47,890 bases of DNA, taken from the IMG/VR virus record IMGVR_UViG_2671180896_000002, one strand, 5' to 3'. The notes beneath the pieces were generated by a model, which worked only from the letters and a program-made list of their open reading frames with translations, searched no databases and was not told the DNA's origin. The stretch comes from a virus. Its lineage: Duplodnaviria; Heunggongvirae; Uroviricota; Caudoviricetes. The translations under genes and the position numbers were made by a program. Shown piece by piece: positions 2,401 to 35,995 of this stretch. Position 1 is the first letter of the stretch. Each line of letters opens with the position of its first letter.

Positions 2401-5400
2401 TCAACGAATACTGATGCCGGAAGCGGCTTTTTTGGTCACAATCACCGTACAGTCGGTGATATTGCCTGCCCCCTGATTGCCTTTCTGGAAAATCTTAAAC
2501 TCCAGAGTGACGCTACCACCACCACTAGGCATATCAATAACTGCACTGTAACTACCGGGAATGGCCCCTTTAGTTTCTCTGGATGCGATTAATACGCCGT
2601 TTTTGCGAACTTCAAAACCATAACCCGTGTATCGCGTGCCTCCTGGGTTATTTCCGCTCCCCGGATCGTCATACGCTATACCGTTAAAAATAATGGGCGG
2701 AATAATAATCTGGCGGTCAAAGTTATGATCATCGCTGATGGTGACTGTAACCGTACCGTTTGGTGTTTCCGTGTTACCCCACGTACCGACTTTTTTCGGG
2801 AAGGCTTTTGATACAGCTTTAACGAAATCCCCTCTGACCTGGGTCGCCTCCAGCATGCCCTTAATCGTACAGTTCTGGTTAATCGTGACATTGTTGAGCG
2901 TTCCTGAGTTCGCATTCACACTACCACTGATATCCGCATTTTTAGCGGTCAGCTTTCCGTCTGATGTCAGGGAAAATACCGGAGGACTGCCACCGCTGGT
3001 AATGGTGGGGGCTGTCAGGCGCTTCAGGAACACGTCGTTCATGAATATCTGGTTGCCCTGCGCCACAAACATCGGCGTTTCATTCCCGTTTGCCGGGTCA
3101 ATAAACGCGATACGGTTAGCGGCAACCAGAAACTGGCTCAGCTTGCCTTCCTCCGTGTCCTCCATGCTGAGGCCAATACCCGCGACATAATGTTTGCCGT
3201 CTTTGGTCTGCTCAATTTTGACGCCCCACATGGCATTCCATTTATCGTTAGCGTCCTTCCACTCTTTCGAAAACTCATCCAGTCTGCTGGCGTTATCCTC
3301 CGTCAGATCAACTTTTTCCAGCAGCTCTTTACCGAGATGGGATTCGGTTATCTTGCCTTTGAAAAAATCCAGGTAACCTTCCGCATCATCGCTCGCCCGA
3401 CCGACAGCCTCCACGAATGCCGATTTGCCAACGGTGTTCACACTGCGAACGTAAAAATAATAATCATGGCCCGGTTTGATATTGATACTGGCGGCTATCC
3501 AGTACAGCGCCGTACCAAGATAGCGGGCTGTGGTTTCAACCTGCCTGATATCGGTAATCCGCTTTTCCGAGAACCAGAACTCAAACTGTACCGTCGGGTC
3601 ATAAACAGCAAGATGCGGCGTGGCGGTTATCTGAAAATAGCCCGGCGTCAGCTCAATCCTCGACGGTGCTGCCGGTGCGGCAATCCGGAACGATACCGAC
3701 GCCGGATCACCCTGCTGCCCCCGGGCATTTACCGCCCGGACTGTCAGCCTGTAGTTCCCCAGCGCCAGTTGCGTGAAGCGGTATGTGGTTTCCGTCGTCC
3801 GGGCCGTGCTGACCAGCCGCTCACTGCCGTCGTCCGCTGTTACGGTCAGACGGAGCAGGAAGCTCACGCCCTTCACCACCTTCGGTGTGTCCCATCGAGC
3901 CAGCACCTGGTATTCCCCACTGTCTGCGGTGACTTCTGCGGTCAGGTGCTGCACCGCTGGCGGCGTGACACCATTCACCGTGCCGCTCTGGTCGCCGTCA
4001 AAGTGCGCCCCGTTATCCACGATGGCTTCTTTTTCCGGTACATGCTGCACGGCAGTGATGGCATACGTGCCGTCATCGTTCTCACGGATACTCACACAGC
4101 GGAACAGGCGCTGACGCAACGTCGGCAACTTCAGCCCCCACACACTGTATTCTGCAACGCCGTCAGGAACCCGGTTCACTTTCACCTTAAGTCCGTCGGT
4201 GACGGACTGAACCTCCACGCTGACCGGATTACCACTTCCGTCAACCAGGCTTATCAGCGTGGTACCGGAGGATGGCAGCGTGATTTCACGGTCGAGCGTC
4301 AGCGTCCGGGTCTGGCTGTTCACCGCCAGCACGCGACCACCGGTGCTGATACCGGCATAGTCATCATCGCAGATTTCAATGACATCGCCCGGTACATGGC
4401 GAAGCCCTTCAGCACCCACGCTGAAATCCACGGTCTGCGTTTCCAGCAGTTCCGTTTTAATCAGCCACAGCCCGGCTCGGTGTGCCTGCCCCCGACTGGT
4501 ACAACCAAAGGCATCCATCTTCGTGACATTACGACCGTAACGGGCAATGGCCTGCGTATCTTCAACAAGCTCTGTCGCCGTCTCCCAGCCGTTGTTCGGG
4601 TCAATCCAGTTCACCTCAACGGCATTATGGCGGTCCTTCAGGGCGCTGAAGCTGTAGCGGAACGGCGCGCCATCATCCGGCATCACCACATTACTGCGGT
4701 TATAGGTCCACACCTTATCCGACGGTCGGTCCTGCACGAACGTCAGCGTCTGCCCGTTCCATACCGGCATACAGCGCATCGCCGAGCAGAAATCACTGAG
4801 CACATCCCACGCCTTACGCTGTGTGGTCAGGTACGCATTACAGGTGATGCGCGGCTCCGTGCCGCCAAAGCCGTCCGGCACTGACTGGTCGCAGTACTGG
4901 CCGATGACATACAGCGCCCATTTGTCCACATCCGCCGCACCAAGACGTTTCCCCATGCCGTAGCGTGGATGGCTCAGCATATCCCACAGACACCAGGCCA
5001 TGTTATTGCTGTATGCTGGCTTAAACGTTCCGTCCCAGATACCGCTGTATTGCCGCGTCTGCGGGTTATAGTTCGACGGCACCTGCAGAATACGCCCGCG
5101 CAGATGATAATTACGGCTCACCTGCTGGCTGCCGAACTGCTCCGAATCCACCTGCACGCCGACCAGTGCCGTGTTCGGGTAGCACTGTTTCACATCGATG
5201 ATTTCGGTGTATGACGACCAGAGCGTTTTGTTCTGCAGCTGGTCTGTGGTGCTGTCCGGCGTCATCCTGCGCATCCGGATATTGAACGGGCGCGGCGGCA
5301 GGTTACCCACCACCACCGATGCCAGATACTGTGAGGTGGTTTTGCCTTTAATGGTGATGTCTTTTTCCGTCACCCAGCCACCGTTACGCTGTATCTGAAC

Positions 5401-25800: not shown

Positions 25801-26265
25801 TTACTTTAAACACTGCTCGGTTATGTATTGCTGAGCACCTTCAAGTTGGGCCTGCATCATTACCAGTCGTTCCCGGAGGGTGAAATAATCCCGTTCAGCG
25901 GTGTCTGCCAGTCGGGGGGAGGCTGCATTATCCACGCCGGAGGCGGTGGTGGCTTCACGCACTGACTGACAGACTGCTTTGATGTGCAACCGACGACGAC
26001 CAGCGGCAACATCATCACGCAGAACATCATTTTCAGCTTTCGCATCAGCTAACTCCTTCGTGTATTTTGCATCGAGCGCAGCAACATCACGCTGACGCAT
26101 CTGCATGTCAGTAATTGCCGCGTTCGCCAGCTTCAGTTCTCTGGCATTTTTGTCGCGCTGTTCTTTGTAGGCGATGGCGTTATCACGGTAATGATTAACA
26201 CCCCATGACAGGCAGACGACGATGCAGATAACCAGAGCGGAGATAATCGCGGTTACTCTGTTCAT
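25801..26265 (-). CDS. Spanin, inner-membrane subunit (Rz)
   Basis: Start [21 protein letters not shown] (N-terminal TM) overlapping the endolysin stop (ATGA); coiled-coil periplasmic domain; last gene of the lysis cassette. Confidence 0.8.
25860..26045 (-). CDS. Spanin, outer-membrane lipoprotein subunit (Rz1), embedded in Rz in another frame
   Basis: 61-aa [27 protein letters not shown]... with lipobox (VVGC) and proline-rich mature part ([15 protein letters not shown]), fully inside Rz. Confidence 0.75.
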
Positions 26266-26759
26266 TGCTGACCCCACAAACAGATTTCACGCTCAATCTC
26301 ACGACGAGTCATGAGACCTTTCCATTGCTTACCGCCAGCATATGTCCAGCGACGTAGCTGATCACATGCGCCTTTGATATCGCCCTGGTTTATTTTGCGA
26401 AGAAGCGTCGATGTTCTGAAATTGCCAGCACCCACGTTGTAAACGAATGAGTAAAGAGCGCCGCGCGTTGTTTCCGGTATATCGACTTTGATGTACGGGT
26501 TAATTTGTCTGGCGACCGTGGCAAGGTCTTTATTCAAGAGTGTTTTGCATTCTGCTTTGGTATACGTTTTACCGAGCATGATGTCTTTTCCTGTATGCCC
26601 GTGACATACAGTCCATACACCAACAATATCTTTGTATGGTATGTAGCTGACACCTTCCAGACCATCGTTACCACTTGGGCCAGTGATTAACACTGATGCT
26701 ATAGCAATTGCTCCGCCACCAATAGCAGCAGCAACGACTTTTCGTAATGATGGAGGCAT
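26262..26759 (-). CDS. SAR endolysin (lysozyme family, N-terminal signal-anchor-release domain)
   Basis: 165-aa ORF with Gly/Ala-rich weakly hydrophobic N-terminus ([20 protein letters not shown]); start overlaps holin stop (TAATG). Confidence 0.8.
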
Positions 26760-26974
26760 TATTCACCTCTCGCAGCCTTGCGCTTATCTTCTTTAATCTT
26801 GAAATAAAGGTTTGTCAGGTACGTCAGCAGGCCAAATACCAGACTACCCAGCACACCGATTGCAGCCCACTGTGACGGAGTTACTCTATCGAGCAACTGT
26901 AAAAACCAGTAGCCAGCACTGCCTGCGGAGGTGCCGTAGGCAATGCCTGTTGAAATTTTGTCCATGGATTTCAT
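26759..26974 (-). CDS. Pinholin (phage 21 S-like) with dual-start motif
   Basis: [71 protein letters not shown]: two TM segments, dual starts MKSM.../MDK... as in S21 antiholin/holin; GGAGGTGAGG SD upstream. Confidence 0.85.
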
Positions 26975-27075
26975 AGCCTCACCTCCGCACGGAACGGATG
27001 GCATAGTTATTATGTGTAGGCTTTCAGACACATCAATCAGAGCCTTAATTGATATATATGCTGGAGACGATGCAA

Positions 27076-27100
27076 TATAAAAAGCTCGCCGTAGCGAGCT
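27076..27100 (-). terminator. Rho-independent terminator between moron lipoprotein genes and the lysis cassette
   Basis: Minus strand: AGCTCGC-TACG-GCGAGCT followed by TTTTTATATT. Confidence 0.55.
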
Positions 27101-28200: not shown

Positions 28201-29138
28201 TTTTCCTCACATATGTCATATAGTAAAGGATTATATATACCGTTGTTTTGGACGCTCAAACAGCGAATCAGATCAAATAAAACGCACATTTGTTAACATT
28301 TACACAAAGTCTGCGTGGGATATTCTGAAAGAATATCCATAATGTGGAGAGAATCTATTGAAGTGCATGGTGCCGGGTGCCTCCCGGTGAACAAAATGTT
28401 CGTGATACCTGTCGGCGACAGAAAAGGTTAATGGTATCACCCCACCGCACAGGGGGATTCACCATGCAGGAGTTTTCTTAGCAAACTCACTGCGCGCCCG
28501 GCAACTCCCAACCACATAAAATGCGGAGTTTGTGGTATTTATGCATATAACTCGCAGGAATTATCTTAAAAAACTGATGTCGATCCGGATTAAAAAGAAG
28601 CAGGTCATCATCAGATGACTGGAAAAAAGGAAAACAAAAAATACTCATCATACAGTTTTGATTGCAGGGATGAGCCTGCTATGCACAATATGCAGAATAT
28701 AAGCAAGATAAAAATATGCAGGCATATTATTTCGGGTTTTGTTATTAACACAACCTTTTTAATAATCATTTGGCATACAATAAACCAGCCCAAAAAGAAC
28801 CGCCTAAACAGGCGGTTGGTCAATACAAAGGATGCTTCGTCTTTATTATAGTAATCTGAGGCGTCGGGTGTCTTGTATCAGACAACATATTGTCCCGCTA
28901 AACAGCGAATTACAAACCACCCTGCAATGATCTCTCATCTCATTTTATATGAGTTGACGACATCAGGATAACGCATCATCAGCCCCTGCCAAGAAATATC
29001 AAAACTCCCGCCAGCAATGTGTTATCACAATATTGTAAAAAAAACACAGCACCGAAACTATAACTGGTCTCTGTTATAATTTGGAGCAGAAAGACCAGTT
29101 GCCCAACTAGCAGCATTCTCCCCTGCTTTCCTGACGTA

Positions 29139-29166
29139 AAAAAACCGCATTAAGCGGTTTTTTTAC
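29139..29166 (-). terminator. Strong hairpin with flanking A and T runs, candidate late terminator (tR'-like) downstream of the Q-like gene
   Basis: AAAAAAACCGC-ATTAA-GCGGTTTTTTTA; on the minus strand the stem is followed by a 7-T run; about 80 nt downstream of the 180-aa gene stop. Confidence 0.55.
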
Positions 29167-29244
29167 GATGTCCATGTCTGCAATCCGCCTCGCGATACAG
29201 CTTTGCGAAGCATAGCAAAATTGAAGCAGTTTATACGTAAGAAA

Positions 29245-29787
29245 TCAAGCCATTTTCTCAGCAAATGATTCACGCATGGGAATATATAGGGCATACTCAG
29301 CAACAGCTAACCAATTAGCAATCCGTTTTTCGCATGTGCTAAAACACCACTCTGGGTGTGCATCATTTAGCAATTCAGCCATTTTGCGCTTAGTCATCCC
29401 CCGCCCTTCATAGCGTTGCCGGAGAATGCAAATCAATCCTGGATGCTCTGCCAGCACCTCACTTATGACTCGATCAATACATAACGCCTCTGCATCAGTA
29501 CAATGCGCCAGCCAGCTCTTTTGCTTGCCGTTGATCATCTCTCGCAAAAACGCTTCCAGCTCAGCTTTCTCTATTCCCGCTTTTTTCATTCTGCGCAGGG
29601 CTTCATTAATGGCTGTTTTCGTCAGTTTTTTGGATGCCAACAACTGATTGAACATATTCCCTGACCTGCCACCGCCAATATACGACCAGCGCCCCCACAT
29701 ACGTAGTTTTCCCTGAATCCAGACACTTTCCAGCGTGGTGAGGCGAAGGTGTTCTCCGCTTTTTCCTGTATTCGTTGGGTAAATCAT
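29245..29787 (-). CDS. Putative late-gene antiterminator (Q-like) by position; family not identified
   Basis: 180-aa ORF with Cys pairs (HCTDAEALC, EWCFSTCEK); last gene of the nin-like block, followed by terminator hairpin, morons and the lysis cassette, the position lambda Q occupies. Not lambda-Q-like in sequence. Confidence 0.4.
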   Translation of the reverse strand: MIYPTNTGKSGEHLRLTTLESVWIQGKLRMWGRWSYIGGGRSGNMFNQLLASKKLTKTAINEALRRMKKAGIEKAELEAFLREMINGKQKSWLAHCTDAEALCIDRVISEVLAEHPGLICILRQRYEGRGMTKRKMAELLNDAHPEWCFSTCEKRIANWLAVAEYALYIPMRESFAEKMA

Positions 29788-30074
29788 AAATGACCTTTCT
29801 TTCTCCAGATTTCTTGTGTGCGAAAAACCCCTTCAGCATGCATCAGGCGCAATTCTTCTTTGGTGTAATCGCTGGTTTTTACCCGCTCGTCGATTAGATC
29901 GTGGCATGAGCTACAGGCTATCGCCGCCTGCATATCGTGTGGTTTTGTCGCTGTTCCGCACGTCCCCGCCAGCCTGTAATGCGCCAGCACAGAGGTTTCG
30001 GGATTGTGATTGCAGTAGCCAGGGATTCTGATCTGGCACATCTGGCCTTTAGCCGCTTTACGTAAATTCACCAT
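29784..30074 (-). CDS. YbcO-like (DUF1364) protein, putative Zn-binding nuclease of lambdoid nin regions
   Basis: 96-aa ORF MVNLRKAAKGQMCQIRIPGYCNHNPETSVLAHYRLAGTCGTATKP...IACSSCHD with four conserved Cys, resembling DLP12 YbcO as recalled. Confidence 0.65.
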   Translation of the reverse strand: MVNLRKAAKGQMCQIRIPGYCNHNPETSVLAHYRLAGTCGTATKPHDMQAAIACSSCHDLIDERVKTSDYTKEELRLMHAEGVFRTQEIWRKKGHL

Positions 30075-30673
30075 TACGCAAACTCCAGTAGTTGTGCGGC
30101 CACATTTTCAACTTCCTCCTGAGAGGAGAATTTACGGAACAGAATCCAGTTCCACAGCACATTCAGTACAGATTTATAAACCTGCTGAAACTCGACTTCG
30201 TCCATATTCGCAAAAGCGATGGATTTTGCCCGACGCCCACGGCTACCGTCCGGATAAATATGCTCGGTGTAAAATCCGGCCTGAATGGTTACCCACTCGC
30301 GGAAAGCCTCAAACGACTTTAGCAACGCCGTATCCCGGGTTCTACGAGTCGCAACGGTGTTAAGGTATTGCTCTGCGGCATCACTCAGGGCTGGCGTGTG
30401 TTCCCGACCAACTGATTCGCACAGGTAATCAACGAAACCAGACAGCAGTTCTCGTTCGCGAGGCGTGATCGCCCCACCGACCGGAGTCCAGTAATCGAAT
30501 CCCAGTTGCAGGAGTTTGAAAAAACGCTTGTGGAATGCGTAGTTACGCACACGCTTAAAGTCTGCGTGTATCCACTCACCTATTTTGATTTGATGCAGAA
30601 AATCGCAACTCTCCGGCGTCGCCGGGAGAAGTAAACCAGAAGAAGTTTGTTTGACCAGTTGTATATGCGCCAT
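30074..30673 (-). CDS. Hypothetical nin-region protein (199 aa)
   Basis: ORF translationally coupled (ATGA overlap) to the YbcO-like gene; no confident family assignment. Confidence 0.5.
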   Translation of the reverse strand: MAHIQLVKQTSSGLLLPATPESCDFLHQIKIGEWIHADFKRVRNYAFHKRFFKLLQLGFDYWTPVGGAITPRERELLSGFVDYLCESVGREHTPALSDAAEQYLNTVATRRTRDTALLKSFEAFREWVTIQAGFYTEHIYPDGSRGRRAKSIAFANMDEVEFQQVYKSVLNVLWNWILFRKFSSQEEVENVAAQLLEFA

Positions 30674-31173: not shown

Positions 31174-32292
31174 GTGCCGATGAATTACTCTCACGATAAC
31201 TGGTCAGCAATTCTGGCCCATATTGGTAAGCCCGAAGAACTGGATACTTCGGCACGTAATGCCGGGGCTCTAACCCGCCGCCGCGAAATTCGTGATGCTG
31301 CAACTCTGCTACGTCTGGGGCTGGCTTACGGCCCCGGGGGGATGTCATTACGTGAAGTCACTGCATGGGCTCAGCTCCATGACGTTGCAACATTATCTGA
31401 CGTGGCTCTCCTGAAGCGGCTGCGGAATGCCGCCGACTGGTTTGGCATACTTGCCGCACAAACACTTGCTGTACGCGCCGCAGTTACGGGTTGTACAAGC
31501 GGAAAGAGATTGCGTCTTGTCGATGGAACAGCAATCAGTGCGCCCGGGGGCGGCAGCGCTGAATGGCGACTACATATGGGATATGATCCTCATACCTGTC
31601 AGTTCACTGATTTTGAGCTAACCGACAGCAGAGACGCTGAACGGCTGGACCGATTTGCGCAAACGGCAGACGAGATACGCATTGCTGACCGGGGATTCGG
31701 TTCGCGTCCCGAATGTATCCGCTCACTTGCTTTTGGAGAAGCTGATTATATCGTCCGGGTTCACTGGCGAGGATTGCGCTGGTTAACTGTAGAAGGAATG
31801 CGCTTTGACATGATGGGTTTTCTGCGCGGGCTGGATTGCGGTAAGAACGGTGAAACCACTGTAATGATAGGCAATTCAGGTAATAAAAAAGCCGGAGCGC
31901 CCTTTCCGGCACGTCTCATTGCCGTATCACTTCCTCCCGAAAAAGCATTAATCAGTAAAACCCGACTGCTCAGCGAGAATCGTCGAAAAGGACGAGTAGT
32001 TCAGGCGGAAACGCTGGAAGCAGCGGGCCATGTGCTATTGCTAACATCATTACCGGAAGATGAATATTCAGCAGAGCAAGTGGCTGATTGTTACCGTCTG
32101 CGATGGCAAATTGAACTGGCTTTTAAGCGGCTCAAAAGTTTGCTGCACCTGGATGCTTTGCGTGCAAAGGAACCTGAACTCGCGAAAGCGTGGATATTTG
32201 CTAATCTACTCGCCGCATTTTTAATTGACGACATAATCCAGCCATCGCTGGATTTCCCCCCCAGAAGTGCCGGATCCGAAAAGAAGAACTAA
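31174..32292 (+). CDS. insL: IS186 transposase (IS4 family, DDE)
   Basis: 372-aa ORF (M)PMNYSHDNWSAILAHIGKPEELDTSARNAGALTRRREIRDAATLLRLGLAYGPGG..., recognisable as IS186/IS421 transposase; sits inside the inverted repeats. Confidence 0.9.
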   Translation: MPMNYSHDNWSAILAHIGKPEELDTSARNAGALTRRREIRDAATLLRLGLAYGPGGMSLREVTAWAQLHDVATLSDVALLKRLRNAADWFGILAAQTLAVRAAVTGCTSGKRLRLVDGTAISAPGGGSAEWRLHMGYDPHTCQFTDFELTDSRDAERLDRFAQTADEIRIADRGFGSRPECIRSLAFGEADYIVRVHWRGLRWLTVEGMRFDMMGFLRGLDCGKNGETTVMIGNSGNKKAGAPFPARLIAVSLPPEKALISKTRLLSENRRKGRVVQAETLEAAGHVLLLTSLPEDEYSAEQVADCYRLRWQIELAFKRLKSLLHLDALRAKEPELAKAWIFANLLAAFLIDDIIQPSLDFPPRSAGSEKKN

Positions 32293-32485: not shown

Positions 32486-32641
32486 TTACTCCCCAAGTTC
32501 GTAAGCTGTGAAGACAGCGACCTCCGTCTGGTCGGTTCGGATTCGTACCTCGCAGAGGTCTTTCCTCGTTACCAGTACCGTCACTATAACGGTTAAACAG
32601 ATGACGATCAGGGCGACTAACATCGCCTTTTGCTGCTTCAT
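32486..32641 (-). CDS. hok: Hok/Gef-family type I toxin (small membrane toxin)
   Basis: MKQQKAMLVALIVICLTVIVTVLVTRKDLCEVRIRTDQTEVAVFTAYELGE (51 aa), near-identical in pattern to HokD/RelF and HokC; the supplied ORF extends in frame upstream to 32698. Confidence 0.85.
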   Translation of the reverse strand: MKQQKAMLVALIVICLTVIVTVLVTRKDLCEVRIRTDQTEVAVFTAYELGE

Positions 32642-32970
32642 AGCCTGCTTCTCCTTGCCTTTCGGCACGTAAGAGGCTAACCTACATGTGCAAAGCATGA
32701 AATTGGCCTCAGATTAATGTTAAGCGTCTTGCCGGATGCGTAATGTTAACTGGGGCTTTTCTCTATCTGCCTTTGATGTTCATGCCCGAGGCAGATAGCC
32801 TCAAGTATCCGCAGCTATTTGTCTGCTGTTACCACCTACCTGCGCCAATCACTGACTCTACAAAGATCTATCCGCGATAACATTTTGAGTTTAAGAACTT
32901 TTGCGTACGCACCAAAAGATGCATATACTAGACTAGTCATAGTTCTAATCTGCTTGATTATGGAGTCAGG

Positions 32971-34029
32971 ATGAGTTTCCTTTCTGAACAAGACGTACAA
33001 AATTTAGTCATTAATAAAATGATCTTTCACGTTGTAGGTAAGAATCTTGAAGCACCGACACTTCTCAAAGAAATAAAACCAGTTCAGCATGTGGATTTTT
33101 TTCTTGAACGTATCAAATCTTCACTGAAAGGAAATCTTTTCACTTTTCTGGAGAATTCAAATACCGAAAGAATCCTGCGTATCATTAGAGATAAAGCAGA
33201 TGCTGAAGCTAATTGTTTTACAGAACAATCGAAGCTACTGGCCAGTGATTTTCAGTCACACCATTCTAGCGGTAACACGAGTATGGGATGCTTTTTCTTA
33301 TTTGAATTGGTTTCAGATAAGGAAAAATTATATGCAATTATAAAATACGATAATGAAGATGTGGTTCGTTATGTTCTTGACGAAAAGTTATCTGAAGAAC
33401 AAATGCCTACTTTAGAAAGATTTCATGAAACTTTCGTAAAAAAAGCTGAGGCAATGCAAAAAATAGCGTTAATTCAACTTGATCCAAGTGGGAAAGGCGG
33501 GAAAGTTATTGTAAAAGACAGGAGTAAAAGAACCAATATTTCAGGATATTTTAAAGGCTTCTTAAATGTTAAAAGAGTCAACTCTGAAATTGAACTTTGC
33601 AATAAGCTTATTGATGCGCTGAAAATAACCTTCAAAAGGCATAAAGAATTATTACCAGAGTCAATTCAAAAAAGCGGCGTAAATAAAATATATGAAGTTT
33701 TAAGCAGAGCTGATTTCGAATATAATCCTGAAGATGCTTCTCCGTTATTGACCAGCATTTTTGGGCCGTTAGATGAAAAATCACCAATTCTCAACACATT
33801 CAAAACTCAAACAAAAAATGCTGGTATTGAAGGCGAATCCTTTACTGTAAAAGCAGATGGCATTCATAAACCACCAAGACGAAAAATTGAAACTGCAGAA
33901 AGTGTAGTAATTAGTTATAATGAAGATGACCGTCCAGAAATAAGAAACTTAGATGATGGGCGAAAACAAATTATTGTTACTACTGCGAGGATTATTACTG
34001 ATGACATCGATACTTCAAAAAATCGATGA
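32971..34029 (+). CDS. NdpA/YejK (NA37)-like nucleoid-associated-protein-family protein, 352 aa
   Basis: ATG with GGAG SD; motifs NKMIFHVVGKN, MGCFFLFELVSDKEKLYAIIKYD and ISGYFKGFLNVKRV parallel YejK motifs (ALHQLIK, GGFVLFCHYRYLAVEYLL, YLTFLKGRVGRKV) as recalled; AT-rich gene on the strand opposite to flanking phage genes. Confidence 0.55.
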   Translation: MSFLSEQDVQNLVINKMIFHVVGKNLEAPTLLKEIKPVQHVDFFLERIKSSLKGNLFTFLENSNTERILRIIRDKADAEANCFTEQSKLLASDFQSHHSSGNTSMGCFFLFELVSDKEKLYAIIKYDNEDVVRYVLDEKLSEEQMPTLERFHETFVKKAEAMQKIALIQLDPSGKGGKVIVKDRSKRTNISGYFKGFLNVKRVNSEIELCNKLIDALKITFKRHKELLPESIQKSGVNKIYEVLSRADFEYNPEDASPLLTSIFGPLDEKSPILNTFKTQTKNAGIEGESFTVKADGIHKPPRRKIETAESVVISYNEDDRPEIRNLDDGRKQIIVTTARIITDDIDTSKNR

Positions 34030-35434
34030 GTCTATACAGGCGTCAAGGAAAGACCCTGAATTTTTGGCATCAGAATCAATAAAAAATGATTCTGCGCGCG
34101 TTCTAATTTCTGCCAAAATGGACAAAGATGCACTCATTCTTTGGCAGTACGTTTACGAAAACGTACCAAATTGGATTGAAATTACTGTTAAAGATGACTG
34201 TAATGACGAAGTAAAACCATCGTCATGCAGTGAAGGTGATAAACTTAACATTACGCTAAAATGCATTGCATTCGAAAATAACAGGTATATTTTTACGCTC
34301 GAAGGGTGGAATGTTTTTCTACACAATGATGATTTAGTATCAATAACCAATAAAGTGAATATTCTCGGTTTGAAACATGGATTTGAAACTTTAGGATATT
34401 CTGTTGAGCCATGGAACCATGCTCCAGAAAAAATTGAACCTAATGAAACCGTACGAACTTCAATCAATTTACAGAGCTACGTTAAATTCTATTCTAGTGA
34501 GTTCATGCCTGCATCTGATATAGCTCCTTGGGTACTTTATAAAATGCCTGAGGCAGAGGACAACTTTTTCAAAAAATGGTTACAAGTTTCCTGCAATATG
34601 CTTTGTCGCACTCTCGTTAATGAATTATTAGCAGATGAAAAGAAATCAATTTGTTTAACTGGAAAGCCACCAAAAAAATTAATTTATGGAGATCCAGACA
34701 TTCTGCTTTCCGACTATTCAGTTTTACAAACTGTAATAAACTGGATCTTTATTGAGGGCAATGAGATTGAACTCAAACATACTTTCTTCACAAGTGAGTT
34801 AGCACGAGAATGGCCAGAGTATGTATCCTTCTGTGAGGGTTTACCAAAAAAACTCCCTATGGCCTTTGAGTCAGCAAAATTACTATATAAGGCCCACATT
34901 CGCGCTAGCAGCAGAGAGACTATTAAATCTCTGTCCGATCTAAGGAAAACCTTAGCTGAAGACACGCAAAAAATAATAAGTCAGTCTAAAGACATCACAT
35001 CCGCTCTTTGGAAAGATCTGGCTCTGGTTATAAGTCTATTTGCAATAAAATATGCGCTAGACGCATCAAAGATTAATATAACCAATAACATATTCCCATA
35101 TATGTTCTTCGCGTTATCTATATATATTTTTATATCTCAGGTTACAACTCTCTTCATAAATAAAAATTACTTTAAGATACTTGATAATACTAGGCTAGTC
35201 TGGAGAGATAAACTATATGGTTTTCTTGATGATACTGACTATGAGAATCTTGCAGTCACACCATTAAGAGAGGCATACAAAGCTTATCAGATTATAGCCA
35301 CATTCGTTGTGATTCTGACTTTGCTGATTTCATTTATAATGATCATATTAGGATTCTCAATGCTTGATGAACATGCTACGAATGCAATTACCTCTTGGCT
35401 CAGTTCTCACTTAATCAATAGTTACTGTAGTTAA
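34001..35434 (+). CDS. Membrane protein, ~477 aa: N-terminal soluble domain plus three or more C-terminal transmembrane helices
   Basis: Start ATG 34001 (MTSILQKIDESIQ...) overlaps the upstream gene by 29 nt (supplied ORF begins at 33953); C-terminal hydrophobic segments LALVISLFAIKYAL, IFPYMFFALSIYIFISQVTTLFI, IIATFVVILTLLISFIMIILGFSML. Confidence 0.6.
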   Translation: MTSILQKIDESIQASRKDPEFLASESIKNDSARVLISAKMDKDALILWQYVYENVPNWIEITVKDDCNDEVKPSSCSEGDKLNITLKCIAFENNRYIFTLEGWNVFLHNDDLVSITNKVNILGLKHGFETLGYSVEPWNHAPEKIEPNETVRTSINLQSYVKFYSSEFMPASDIAPWVLYKMPEAEDNFFKKWLQVSCNMLCRTLVNELLADEKKSICLTGKPPKKLIYGDPDILLSDYSVLQTVINWIFIEGNEIELKHTFFTSELAREWPEYVSFCEGLPKKLPMAFESAKLLYKAHIRASSRETIKSLSDLRKTLAEDTQKIISQSKDITSALWKDLALVISLFAIKYALDASKINITNNIFPYMFFALSIYIFISQVTTLFINKNYFKILDNTRLVWRDKLYGFLDDTDYENLAVTPLREAYKAYQIIATFVVILTLLISFIMIILGFSMLDEHATNAITSWLSSHLINSYCS

Positions 35435-35464
35435 TTTAAGGCGAGAGAAACTCGCCTTAAAAAA

Positions 35465-35995
35465 TCAACGGTAATAGATACAACCTGCAATAAATCCCAT
35501 TGCCATTTGCATTTTTTTCCTTATTTTACCATCTGAACATTCGTTTATCTTAGCTAAACAACGCAATGAAACTCTCATAACAAAATGAGCGATAATTAAC
35601 TCATAGTCATCTATCCTATATTGTTTAAGCCTCAACATGCAGGTATCAATTATACCCCCTTCATCATTGCTGCACTGACGACGTGATTTTTTACCATGAG
35701 GAACAACATTTTTATATTTATCAGCTATTTCCTGCCAATCAATAGAACTATTTTCAGCTACAGCCCAGGCTCCCCAACCGTCCAAAATATCATATATATT
35801 AGCATTGCTATCTACCTGTTTTTTATATTCTTTTTTGAAGCGCGCAAGAAGCATCCTAGCCATCGTTATTATTTCTATACTTGTAACTGATTCATAAGCA
35901 TCAGGAGAAATAATTCTCCCATCACTTAATGCCCCATCACTAAGATTTGCTATTTCCAATAATCGTTCTTTAGTTATTTCCATTATTATCTCCAC
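35465..35995 (-). CDS. Q-like antitermination protein (QuuD / Phage_antitermQ-like family)
   Basis: Contains DGWGAWAVAEN...KKSRRQCSNDEGGIIDTCMLRLKQ...CLAKINECSDGKIRKKMQMAMGFIAGC matching the WGAWA and Cys-pair pattern of DLP12 QuuD as recalled; start may be an internal Met (MARML..., 35863); AT-rich. Confidence 0.5.
   Translation of the reverse strand: MEIIMEITKERLLEIANLSDGALSDGRIISPDAYESVTSIEIITMARMLLARFKKEYKKQVDSNANIYDILDGWGAWAVAENSSIDWQEIADKYKNVVPHGKKSRRQCSNDEGGIIDTCMLRLKQYRIDDYELIIAHFVMRVSLRCLAKINECSDGKIRKKMQMAMGFIAGCIYYR

Follow-up and report, generated by a model that had tools for sequence, protein, structure and literature searches.

Q-dependent late switches in lambdoid phages

In phage lambda, the late switch is made up of the protein Q, the promoter pR' with a -10-like pause element at about +1 to +6, a short terminated transcript (the 6S RNA) and the terminator tR'. 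The same logic, and the same position of the Q gene, appear to recur in the locus described here. It consists of a gene for a protein of 180 amino acids (aa) and the sequence directly behind it, and is part of a stretch of 47,890 nucleotides (nt) from a virus of the Caudoviricetes (IMG/VR record IMGVR_UViG_2671180896_000002), referred to below as the window. The window is a full-length Rac prophage, and a chromosomal segment of Escherichia coli CUVET20-1667 is identical to it. Judged from its sequence, the locus is very probably the late-gene switch of this Rac-type lambdoid prophage, comprising a Q gene, a pR' promoter, a short leader and a tR' terminator. Its proposed parts are the following.

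29245–29787, minus strand: Q-type antiterminator gene, 180 aa, Pfam DUF1133, a remote member of the phage 21 Q (Q21) family (Pfam, PHROG 753, family profile against the PDB, hhalign and Foldseek)
29243–29248, minus strand: -35-like hexamer TTGATT, overlapping the Q stop codon; TTG in at least 90% of 35 variants, at a fixed 17 nt from hexamer 1
29226–29242, minus strand: 17-nt spacer TCTTACGTATAAACTGC, candidate Q-binding element with a conserved TGn at its end; spacer types track recognition-helix types, and there is a counterpart in phage 21
29220–29225, minus strand: hexamer 1, TTCAAT, proposed -10 (family TTnAAT after TGn); kept in at least 90% of variants, in the position of CACTAT in phage 21 and CATAAT in BTP1
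about 29215–29213, minus strand: predicted start site, by comparison with phage 21, where the mapped RNA start is one base before TAAGCT
29209–29214, minus strand: hexamer 2, TATGCT (TAnGCT across the family), where sigma-dependent pausing is proposed; T, A and the last three bases, GCT, do not vary; matches TAAGCT of phage 21 and P22
29186–29208, minus strand: conserved initially transcribed region TCGCAAAGCTGTATCGCGAGGCG, nearly invariant in the window's clade
29138–29164, minus strand: tR'-like intrinsic terminator A7-CCGC-TTAAT-GCGG-T7, symmetric and potentially bidirectional, recognised from its sequence (-16.9 kcal/mol)
29138–29215, minus strand: predicted leader RNA, short (about 75 nt) and terminated, as judged from start site and terminator; corresponds to the aRNA of phage 21, the lambda 6S RNA and StxS

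A Q-dependent cassette consists of a Q gene, pR', a -10-like sigma-dependent pause element, a terminator and the late genes, and in phage 21 the pause element lies downstream of +1 (Yin et al.). The Q protein of phage 21 (PDB 6P18, 6P19 and 6JNX; Pfam PF06530) is encoded by the last gene of the early-right operon and its promoter begins within 5 nt of the stop codon, as in the window. In the GenBank record of the phage 21 cassette (AJ237660) the promoter is annotated 5 nt after Q and a 50-nt 'aRNA' starts one base before TAAGCT, whereas a terminated RNA of about 75 nt is predicted in the window. The layout is common to both, with TTGACA-18-CACTAT-5-TAAGCT in phage 21 pR' and TTGATT-17-TTCAAT-5-TATGCT in the window, although the -10 is CACTAT in phage 21 and TTnAAT in the DUF1133 cassettes. 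Furthermore, the repeats GAGCAA..AGCAA of phage 21, which are taken as the Q21-binding element, occupy the same place as the spacer in the window, where no obvious repeat of the GAGCAA type is found. The terminator of phage 21 is a long hairpin (-20.2 kcal/mol), that of the window a short-stem hairpin flanked by A7 and T7.

Similar cassettes are found in other phages. Gene 23 of P22 encodes a PF06530-type Q, about 78% identical to Q21 over the query fragment, and belongs to another Q subfamily than DUF1133. The P22-like phage BTP1 has TTGACA-18-CATAAT-7-TAAGCT-GCCGTT, followed by a terminator, tRNAs and lysis genes, so that the spacing to the pause-like hexamer is 7 nt in BTP1 as compared to 5 nt in the window. 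A further example is the prophage Rac-SA53, with a DUF1133 protein 76% identical to that of the window and the cassette TTGATT-17-TATCTT-5-TAAGAT-GCCGTT; its TAAGATGCCGTT aligns with TAAGCTGCCGTT of phage 21 (TAAGCT-GCCGTT). Our literature search on Rac-SA53 and on the Q of the Rac prophage found nothing usable.

In the Stx phages (Q933W/pR'/StxS/stx) cargo genes are located between pR'/tR' and the lysis genes. The window shares this arrangement, its cargo being TolA-like lipoproteins, and in relatives tRNA genes are found in this slot. The window differs from the Stx phages in that its cargo has a promoter-like site and a terminator of its own, and in that a role of the leader as a small RNA (sRNA) is only a candidate one. 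A further related arrangement is antQ-isrK-orf45-anrP-isrJ of Gifsy-1, where IsrK directly follows antQ, as IsrK follows the DUF1133 genes in three of the loci collected here (L010, L006 and L007), and where interference of AntQ with termination has experimental support (PMC4825925).

The DUF1133 protein is a remote homologue of phage 21 Q

The first-pass annotation had proposed the 180-aa protein as a Q candidate from the position of its gene only, and had described it as not lambda-Q-like. The latter holds: no match to the lambda Q family (PF03589) was obtained at E ≤ 0.01, no lambda Q entry was present among the Foldseek hits examined for the DUF1133 model, and neither sequence nor fold indicates a relationship. 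The protein is called a 'DUF1133 family protein' in RefSeq, while phage GenBank records and PHROG 753 already name it Q-like. It scores 356 bits against Pfam DUF1133 and a borderline 26.1 bits against PF06530 (cutoff 26.0); these were the sole Pfam matches, the model taken to represent the Q82 family giving none. PHROG 753, 'anti-termination protein Q-like', matches with E 2e-79, and NCBIfam has no model for the protein.

Q21 ranked first in a single-sequence phmmer search of the PDB, but only with an E value of 0.27, so profiles were needed. A family profile retrieved Q21 (6P18 and 6JNX) at E 2.3e-5 when built from 18 diverse homologues and at 2.9e-6 when built from 94; Q21 was the only match, aligned in two collinear segments, and the next entry had E ≥ 0.4. 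Profile-profile comparison of DUF1133 and Q21 with hhalign gave 89.4% and E 2e-6, at a sequence identity of about 15–18%. Conversely, Q21 itself has a PF06530 score of 67 bits together with a sub-threshold DUF1133 match, and a bridging protein (P0325) lies above both Pfam cutoffs.

A structural model of the 180-aa protein was built with AlphaFold2 (AF2) from the 94-sequence alignment, an earlier model from a shallow alignment having been too poor for use (predicted local distance difference test, pLDDT, 57). The new model has a pLDDT of 64 overall and of 80–94 for residues 98–175. When it was used as a Foldseek query, ranks 1–11 were all Q21 chains (probability 1.00, E 7e-4 to 2e-2, TM-score 0.50–0.70), and the next hit had E 1.1. 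This points to the fold of Q21, with N-terminal helices and a sigma-R4-like C-terminal domain. Between the N-terminal Trp-rich helix and the C-terminal domain, DUF1133 has about 40 residues more than Q21. Profile, profile-profile and fold comparisons demonstrate that DUF1133 is a remote homologue of the structurally characterised Q of phage 21, and the Q candidate now stands on more than its position. The family is small: clustering at 90% identity gives about 950 clusters, and at 50% identity there are 88 representatives, mostly fragments. It is found in Enterobacteriaceae only. As Pfam and RefSeq still file the protein as one of unknown function, its assignment to the Q21 lineage is a gain in annotation.

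A promoter-like and pause-like element follows the Q gene

A total of 111 loci with homologues at 52–100% identity to the 180-aa protein were collected, and the cis element was compared in 35 unique variants derived from 104 loci, spanning the same range of Q identity. The comparison revealed a consensus of fixed spacing, TTG...TGnTTnAAT...G.TAnGCT, with zero indels over about 55 nt in the 35 variants. The order is TTG (-35-like), 17 nt, TGn-TTnAAT (hexamer 1), 5 nt and TAnGCT (hexamer 2), followed by a clade-specific stretch of about 25 nt, a variable linker and an intrinsic terminator. In the window the element reads TTGATT-17 nt-TTCAAT-5 nt-TATGCT and extends from 29248 to 29209. A late promoter had been postulated between 29170 and 29245, and at the sequence level this is where a promoter-plus-pause-like element is found, linked to DUF1133 and laid out as in pR' of phage 21 and P22. 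The spacing between TTG and hexamer 1 is kept even where the element lies 600–860 nt from Q. Defined in this way (TTG-17-TGnTTnAAT-5-TAnGCT, leader, terminator), the element shows where late transcription of these prophages should start.

The likeness to phage 21, BTP1 and Rac-SA53, together with the definition of Yin et al., led us to assign the -10 to hexamer 1 and the pause element to hexamer 2. The exact register and the start site that follow from this are probably correct.

Variants of the predicted recognition helix track three types of spacer: TCEKRIANW occurs with TTACG(T/C)AT..AAACTGC, TCE(S/T/N)RID with GTTGCGCGG, and TCRRRID with AGTGAGC(C/A)A. This tracking is confounded by shared descent, and in the clade with a 192-aa Q also by coding overlap with the Q tail, but fits a Q-binding site within the spacer, as in lambda and phage 21. 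Other clades do have repeats, spaced with a period of 11 nt (AGTGA...AGTGA and GTTGC...GTGC), but these overlap coding sequence. In the 192-aa clade (L011 and L015–L028) the -35 and the whole spacer lie inside the last ~30 nt of the Q coding tail (...LQSEPESD or ...LQSCAESA), and the same bases would therefore serve as protein code and as promoter or binding site.

The element is linked to DUF1133 genes

In two loci the element is separated from the Q gene. In a Salmonella locus (L010) it is 857 nt away from Q, behind an IsrK/C4/anti-repressor module, and in a Pantoea locus (L014) 602 nt away, behind hok/sok; both keep the complete block of -35, hexamer 1 and hexamer 2 in a non-coding context. 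Two E. coli/Shigella loci (L006 and L007) that seemed to be without the cassette were rejected as exceptions, as an IS3-family insertion pushes the cassette beyond the fetched flank.

Conversely, when viral contigs were scanned for the DNA pattern of the hexamer 2 core, 121 sites were obtained, 116 of which were informative (at least 650 nt upstream). A DUF1133 gene was located upstream on the same strand at 115 of the 116, within 60 nt in 92 cases and at 69–1463 nt in the remainder. In the complete genome of Klebsiella phage KpF5, the DUF1133 gene is the only Q-family gene, and the cassette, a tRNA and the lysis genes come after it. At the level of sequence, the cis element is thereby established as conserved, fixed in geometry and linked exclusively to DUF1133.

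The module in the Salmonella locus resembles immI of P1 (IsrK with c4 targets, a C4 antisense RNA and an anti-repressor open reading frame, ORF) and is inserted exactly between the DUF1133 gene and the cassette. It was found at 3575–3768 in L010, at 3575–3776 in L006, in L007, and at about 17 of the 116 viral-contig sites, with gaps of 860–1460 nt. Since such a module is located behind another Q family in Gifsy-1 too, it behaves as a mobile unit targeting the Q/pR' junction.

Terminator and leader RNA

The first-pass annotation had the gene ending 80 nt before a strong hairpin flanked by A7 and T7. The distance is exact (29244–29165 between the stop codon and the A run), and the hairpin consists of A7 (29164–29158), CCGC (29157–29154), the loop TTAAT (29153–29149), GCGG (29148–29145) and T7 (29144–29138). 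Its strength is a matter of degree: as a 33-nt hairpin it folds with -16.9 kcal/mol and a z score of -7.5, and none of 200 shuffled sequences was as stable, but the short G-C stem of 4–5 pairs makes its strength not demonstrable. The hairpin was missed by a consensus terminator scan because its stem uses the T run.

A terminator after Q is a feature of the whole family, present in essentially every relative. Of 42 unique variants, 40 have one at 53–100 nt behind hexamer 2 as located by script, and inspection revealed one in the other two. Among the relatives at least six different, unrelated terminator stems occur. The sequence has been replaced several times while the feature was kept, which is the signature of a functional terminator.

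The whole 86-nt leader has a minimum free energy of -30.4 kcal/mol (z score -4.3). No covariation or conserved fold was found in the leader beyond the terminator. A candidate RNA hairpin right after hexamer 2 (GCUUCGC/GCGAGGC) was rejected, as RNAalifold gave no consensus structure and variants break its pairs without compensation. There is a modest chance that the ~75-nt terminated leader has an additional role, compatible with that of a late switch, as a trans-acting Hfq-type sRNA similar to StxS of Stx phages. Such a role would be in keeping with the constitutive-looking promoter, the stable 3' hairpin with its U7 tail, the 5' part that is nearly invariant in the clade, and a weak isrK-like score (Rfam RF01394) exactly over the leader (29138–29211; 21.6 bits, E 0.036). 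It is less easily reconciled with the lack of covariation, with the middle of the leader, which varies freely in sequence and length, and with an isrK score far under the gathering score of 50.

IsrJ was also considered as the leader RNA and found no support: L010 gave no match to Rfam isrJ, and none of the loci contains the complement of the IsrJ probe. That complement (GCTTCAATCGTCGACC) opens with GCTTCAAT, which is shared by the context of hexamer 1, and the position of IsrJ after anrP in Gifsy-1 is that of the cassette in L010. The weak isrK match on the leader and the likeness to the IsrJ probe may both be coincidence.

Proposed mechanism and alternatives

The following course of events is drawn by analogy with phage 21 Q. 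Host sigma-70 RNA polymerase would start at about 29215–29213 from the promoter overlapping the end of Q (TTGATT, the 17-nt spacer and TGn-TTCAAT). Sigma would then re-bind the -10-like TATGCT (29214–29209), and the polymerase would pause a few nt downstream. In the absence of Q, transcription would terminate at the hairpin 29164–29138 and an RNA of about 75 nt would be released. Upon induction, the early operon (DUF1367, YbcO, Q) would supply the 180-aa DUF1133 protein, which would bind promoter DNA, probably in the spacer, engage the paused polymerase and make it terminator-resistant. The modified polymerase would pass tR', the 28817–28798 hairpin, the STnc100 terminator and the 27100–27083 hairpin, and read-through would cover the TolA-like morons and then the holin, lysozyme and Rz genes and beyond.

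The analysis supports a canonical Q/pR'/tR' late switch that uses a Q21-family branch which is divergent and formally uncharacterised, with antitermination as its presumed activity. Which hexamer is the -10 and which the pause element, where RNA starts and where Q binds, we infer from the described systems. The general understanding of Q-mediated antitermination is unchanged; the switch is ordinary in kind, and its use lies mainly in annotation and as a test bed.

Several observations weigh against this interpretation. On the side of the protein, the AF2 model is only moderately confident, with pLDDT below 50 for residues 1–19, 36–55 and 87–94. In the hidden Markov model and hhalign alignments DUF1133 is short of about 13 residues opposite ARPRKMLCRGGGRIQ of Q21, the minor-groove-contacting loop of the HT[loop]H. 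It appears to have a plain helix-turn-helix, and the family is a natural Q21 variant without this loop, available for structural comparison. Our literature search found no experiment on any DUF1133 protein and no paper mentioning DUF1133. AntQ of Gifsy-1 was considered as an experimental proxy and rejected, as the antQ cloning primer encodes MNTQYLQ, which is not the N-terminus of DUF1133 and has no match in any of the loci; as AntQ is a member of another Q family, the results obtained with it are not transferable. On the side of the DNA, hexamer 1 (TTnAAT) has, in nearly all variants, no A at position 2, where a -10 almost universally has one, and should therefore be a weak -10 by itself. The spacer of the window (TCTTACGTATAAACTGC) contains no clear direct-repeat Q-binding element like that of Q21. 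A loose composite pattern is expected about 1.2 times per window by chance, and as the motif is not rare by itself, its weight comes from position and conservation, not from its count; the site at 29214 is the sole one of the composite type in the window. Furthermore, the G-C stem of the terminator is short, with 4–5 G-C pairs (ACCGC/GCGGT, -7.8 kcal/mol) and A:U pairs for the remainder, and this A:U pairing consumes the U tract that a terminator needs.

The missing A also bears on the wiring of the promoter. As hexamer 2 looks like a good extended -10 (TGnTATGCT), we have kept the alternative, which we regard as unlikely, that it is the real extended -10 with a start at about 29202, and that TTG-17-TTnAAT is a platform for the binding of Q or of sigma region 4. 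Q would then be needed for initiation or for loading at the promoter, and not at a downstream sigma-dependent pause. This would agree with the invariance of three key -10 positions in hexamer 2 (T, A and the last T), with the G at -14 in at least 90% of the variants, and with the absence of an A at position 2 of hexamer 1; the sigma-region-4-like C-terminal domain of Q21 (Yin et al.) points the same way. Against this, the annotated RNA of phage 21 begins one base before the homologous TAAGCT, and Yin et al. locate the phage 21 pause element downstream of +1. Moreover, the distance between the invariant TTG and hexamer 1 is precisely the 17 nt that are classical for a -35 and a -10, whereas hexamer 2 is 28 nt away from it. 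A related idea, to which we give an equally small chance, is that the DUF1133 branch differs from Q21 in the loading step itself, with a promoter nearly silent without Q, and Q as a sigma-region-4-like activator loading at initiation. It stems from the critical A almost always missing in TTnAAT, the good extended -10 TGnTAnGCT, the lost minor-groove loop and the 40-residue insert. The leader could in addition be a trans-acting sRNA, and a separate idea, of similarly small chance, is a two-step cascade with a second Q-family gene at 35465–35983.

Far less probable are two explanations that would take the late switch away from the DUF1133 gene. The hairpin could be a mere terminator or bidirectional insulator of the early operon; the gap would then contain no promoter, and the protein would be a DNA-binding, sigma-4-like regulator without antitermination activity. 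A symmetric A7/T7 hairpin does resemble bidirectional terminators, a generic promoter scan lists nothing in 29170–29250, and the composite motif is not rare by itself. We consider this very improbable, given that an element of fixed geometry is conserved across genera, moves with Q even when away from the gene end, and matches the late promoters of phage 21 and P22. In L010 and L014, moreover, the terminator stays with the motif and not with the gene end, as a plain operon terminator would not, and the lysis genes lie downstream behind several terminators, in KpF5 with no other Q. The second explanation, that the gene at 35465–35983 is the functional late antiterminator of this cassette and DUF1133 does something else, has in our view hardly any chance. 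That gene encodes a strong member of PF06530 (113 bits), and the TAnGCT pause-like element of the cassette also occurs in phages with PF06530 Q proteins; yet the cassette is present where the gene is absent (the other 110 DUF1133 loci within 3-kb flanks, and the KpF5 genome) and is linked to DUF1133 at 115 of 116 sites. The gene is, moreover, 5.7 kb upstream of the cassette, with a hairpin and a convergent insertion behind it. The preferred reading remains a Q21-like switch operated by the DUF1133 protein.

The early operon and the prophage

All genes of the module, from DUF1367 to lysis, are on the minus strand. The 180-aa ORF ends with a TGA stop codon at 29247–29245 and is preceded by two further genes.

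30074–30673, minus strand: DUF1367 gene (Pfam PF07105, 326.7 bits; RefSeq annotation), first of three overlapping genes ending with Q (nin-like early-right operon)
29784–30074, minus strand: YbcO/DUF1364 putative nuclease gene (Pfam PF07102, 149.9 bits), directly upstream of Q and overlapping it

Q (29245–29787) overlaps the YbcO gene (29784–30074), which in turn overlaps the DUF1367 gene (30074–30673). The order of YbcO and Q is the same as that of ybcO...quuD in DLP12.

On its early side the Rac window encodes intR, xisR, ralR/RalA, recET, kilR, sieB and ydaS/T-like genes, followed by replication genes. The middle holds the PF06530 Q-family gene, a convergent two-gene insert, hok/sok, an IS4-like element and then DUF1367, YbcO and DUF1133. 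The late side consists of two TolA-like genes, essD/rrrD/Rz and trkG, followed by the terminase, head and tail genes. The hok/sok locus (32486–32810, minus strand) has an Rfam sok score of 99.4 bits. The IS4-like element (IS421 or IS186-type; 31174–32292, plus strand) sits between this locus and the promoter region of the DUF1367-YbcO-Q operon, and its insertion may affect the early transcription that reaches Q.

A 3.7-kb region around Q has at least a partial match in 2112 of 5426 complete E. coli genomes, 445 of which have most of the region. The DUF1133 protein is also found in prophages of Salmonella, Klebsiella, Citrobacter and Enterobacter.

A second Q-family gene

The gene at 35465–35983 (minus strand, 172 aa) is a strong member of PF06530 with 113 bits. 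Residues 62–172 of its product are about 58% identical to the Q of Stx phages, and the N-terminal 61 aa have no phage match. A hairpin lacking a T tract (35436–35457) directly follows the gene, and is itself followed by the convergent two-gene insert (32971–35434, plus strand), which encodes an NA37-like nucleoid-associated protein and a protein of 477 aa that matched nothing in Pfam or PADLOC.

For this gene, the other Q candidate, no TAnGCT-type cassette was found within the window. Neither the 3-kb flanks of the other 110 DUF1133 loci nor the complete KpF5 genome contain the gene itself, which may be a relic or orphan Q or else act as an early antiterminator.

Downstream path, cargo and lysis genes

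The following features lie between tR' and the end of the lysis genes.

28798–28817, minus strand: second terminator-like hairpin (scan: 8 pairs, 5 of them G-C, then CTTTTTGG; -12.4 kcal/mol)
28311–28497, minus strand: STnc100-family sRNA gene with its own 3' hairpin, in the late leader region (Rfam RF02076, 86.6 bits, gathering score 47)
28200–27772 and 27621–27226, minus strand: two lipoprotein genes with a TolA C-terminal domain (Pfam PF06519, 82.6 and 54.6 bits; lipoboxes IIGC and VAGC)
27083–27100, minus strand: terminator-like hairpin between the morons and the holin gene (scan match; -13.0 kcal/mol, z score -4.6)
25801–27031, minus strand: lysis cassette of P21-type holin, lysozyme and Rz/Rz1 (Pfam PF04971 and PF00959; RefSeq essD, rrrD and 'lysis protein'); first late genes and proposed target of antitermination

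The distance from tR' to the holin gene at 27031 is 2.1 kb and includes at least three further terminator-like sites. A path of this length behind several terminators is the situation that processive antitermination exists to solve.

The two lipoprotein genes had been described as morons in the position of the stx genes, and they do separate the module from the genes for holin, lysozyme and Rz. The window and Rac-SA53 have the order YbcO, Q, morons, holin, lysozyme and Rz in common, with LT-II and pertussis-like toxin genes in the moron slot of Rac-SA53. Their expression had further been suggested to be coupled to late transcription. This is retained in part only: the morons have a promoter-like site (28259–28230) and terminator signals of their own, so that late read-through would add to, and not replace, their own expression, and at least three further terminator-like hairpins and the STnc100 gene precede the lysis genes. 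The model predicts the timing of expression of cargo located after the terminator, which in relatives consists of LT-II/pertussis-like toxin genes, tRNAs, sRNAs and anti-repressor modules.

STnc100 has been linked to PasD sRNAs found near Q genes (2026 preprint). In H-19B and many Stx1 phages, a sequence closely following stx1 matches a 42-nt core of the STnc100 gene (28437–28478). A hydrophobic ORF of 45 aa (MLLVGQLVFLLQIITETSYSFGAVFFLQYCDNTLLAGVLIFLGRG) is located at 28979–29116 (minus strand), after tR' and before the second terminator, and the 640-nt stretch around it (about 28500–29138) had no match in the phage collection.

PADLOC gave no matches for the convergent insert or the morons. 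The two moron lipoproteins are paralogous and contain little beyond the TolA C-terminal domain; a role as a decoy for TolA-dependent colicins or filamentous phages is plausible. In RefSeq the first lipoprotein gene is annotated as a truncated tolA pseudogene, and it looks like an intact moron.

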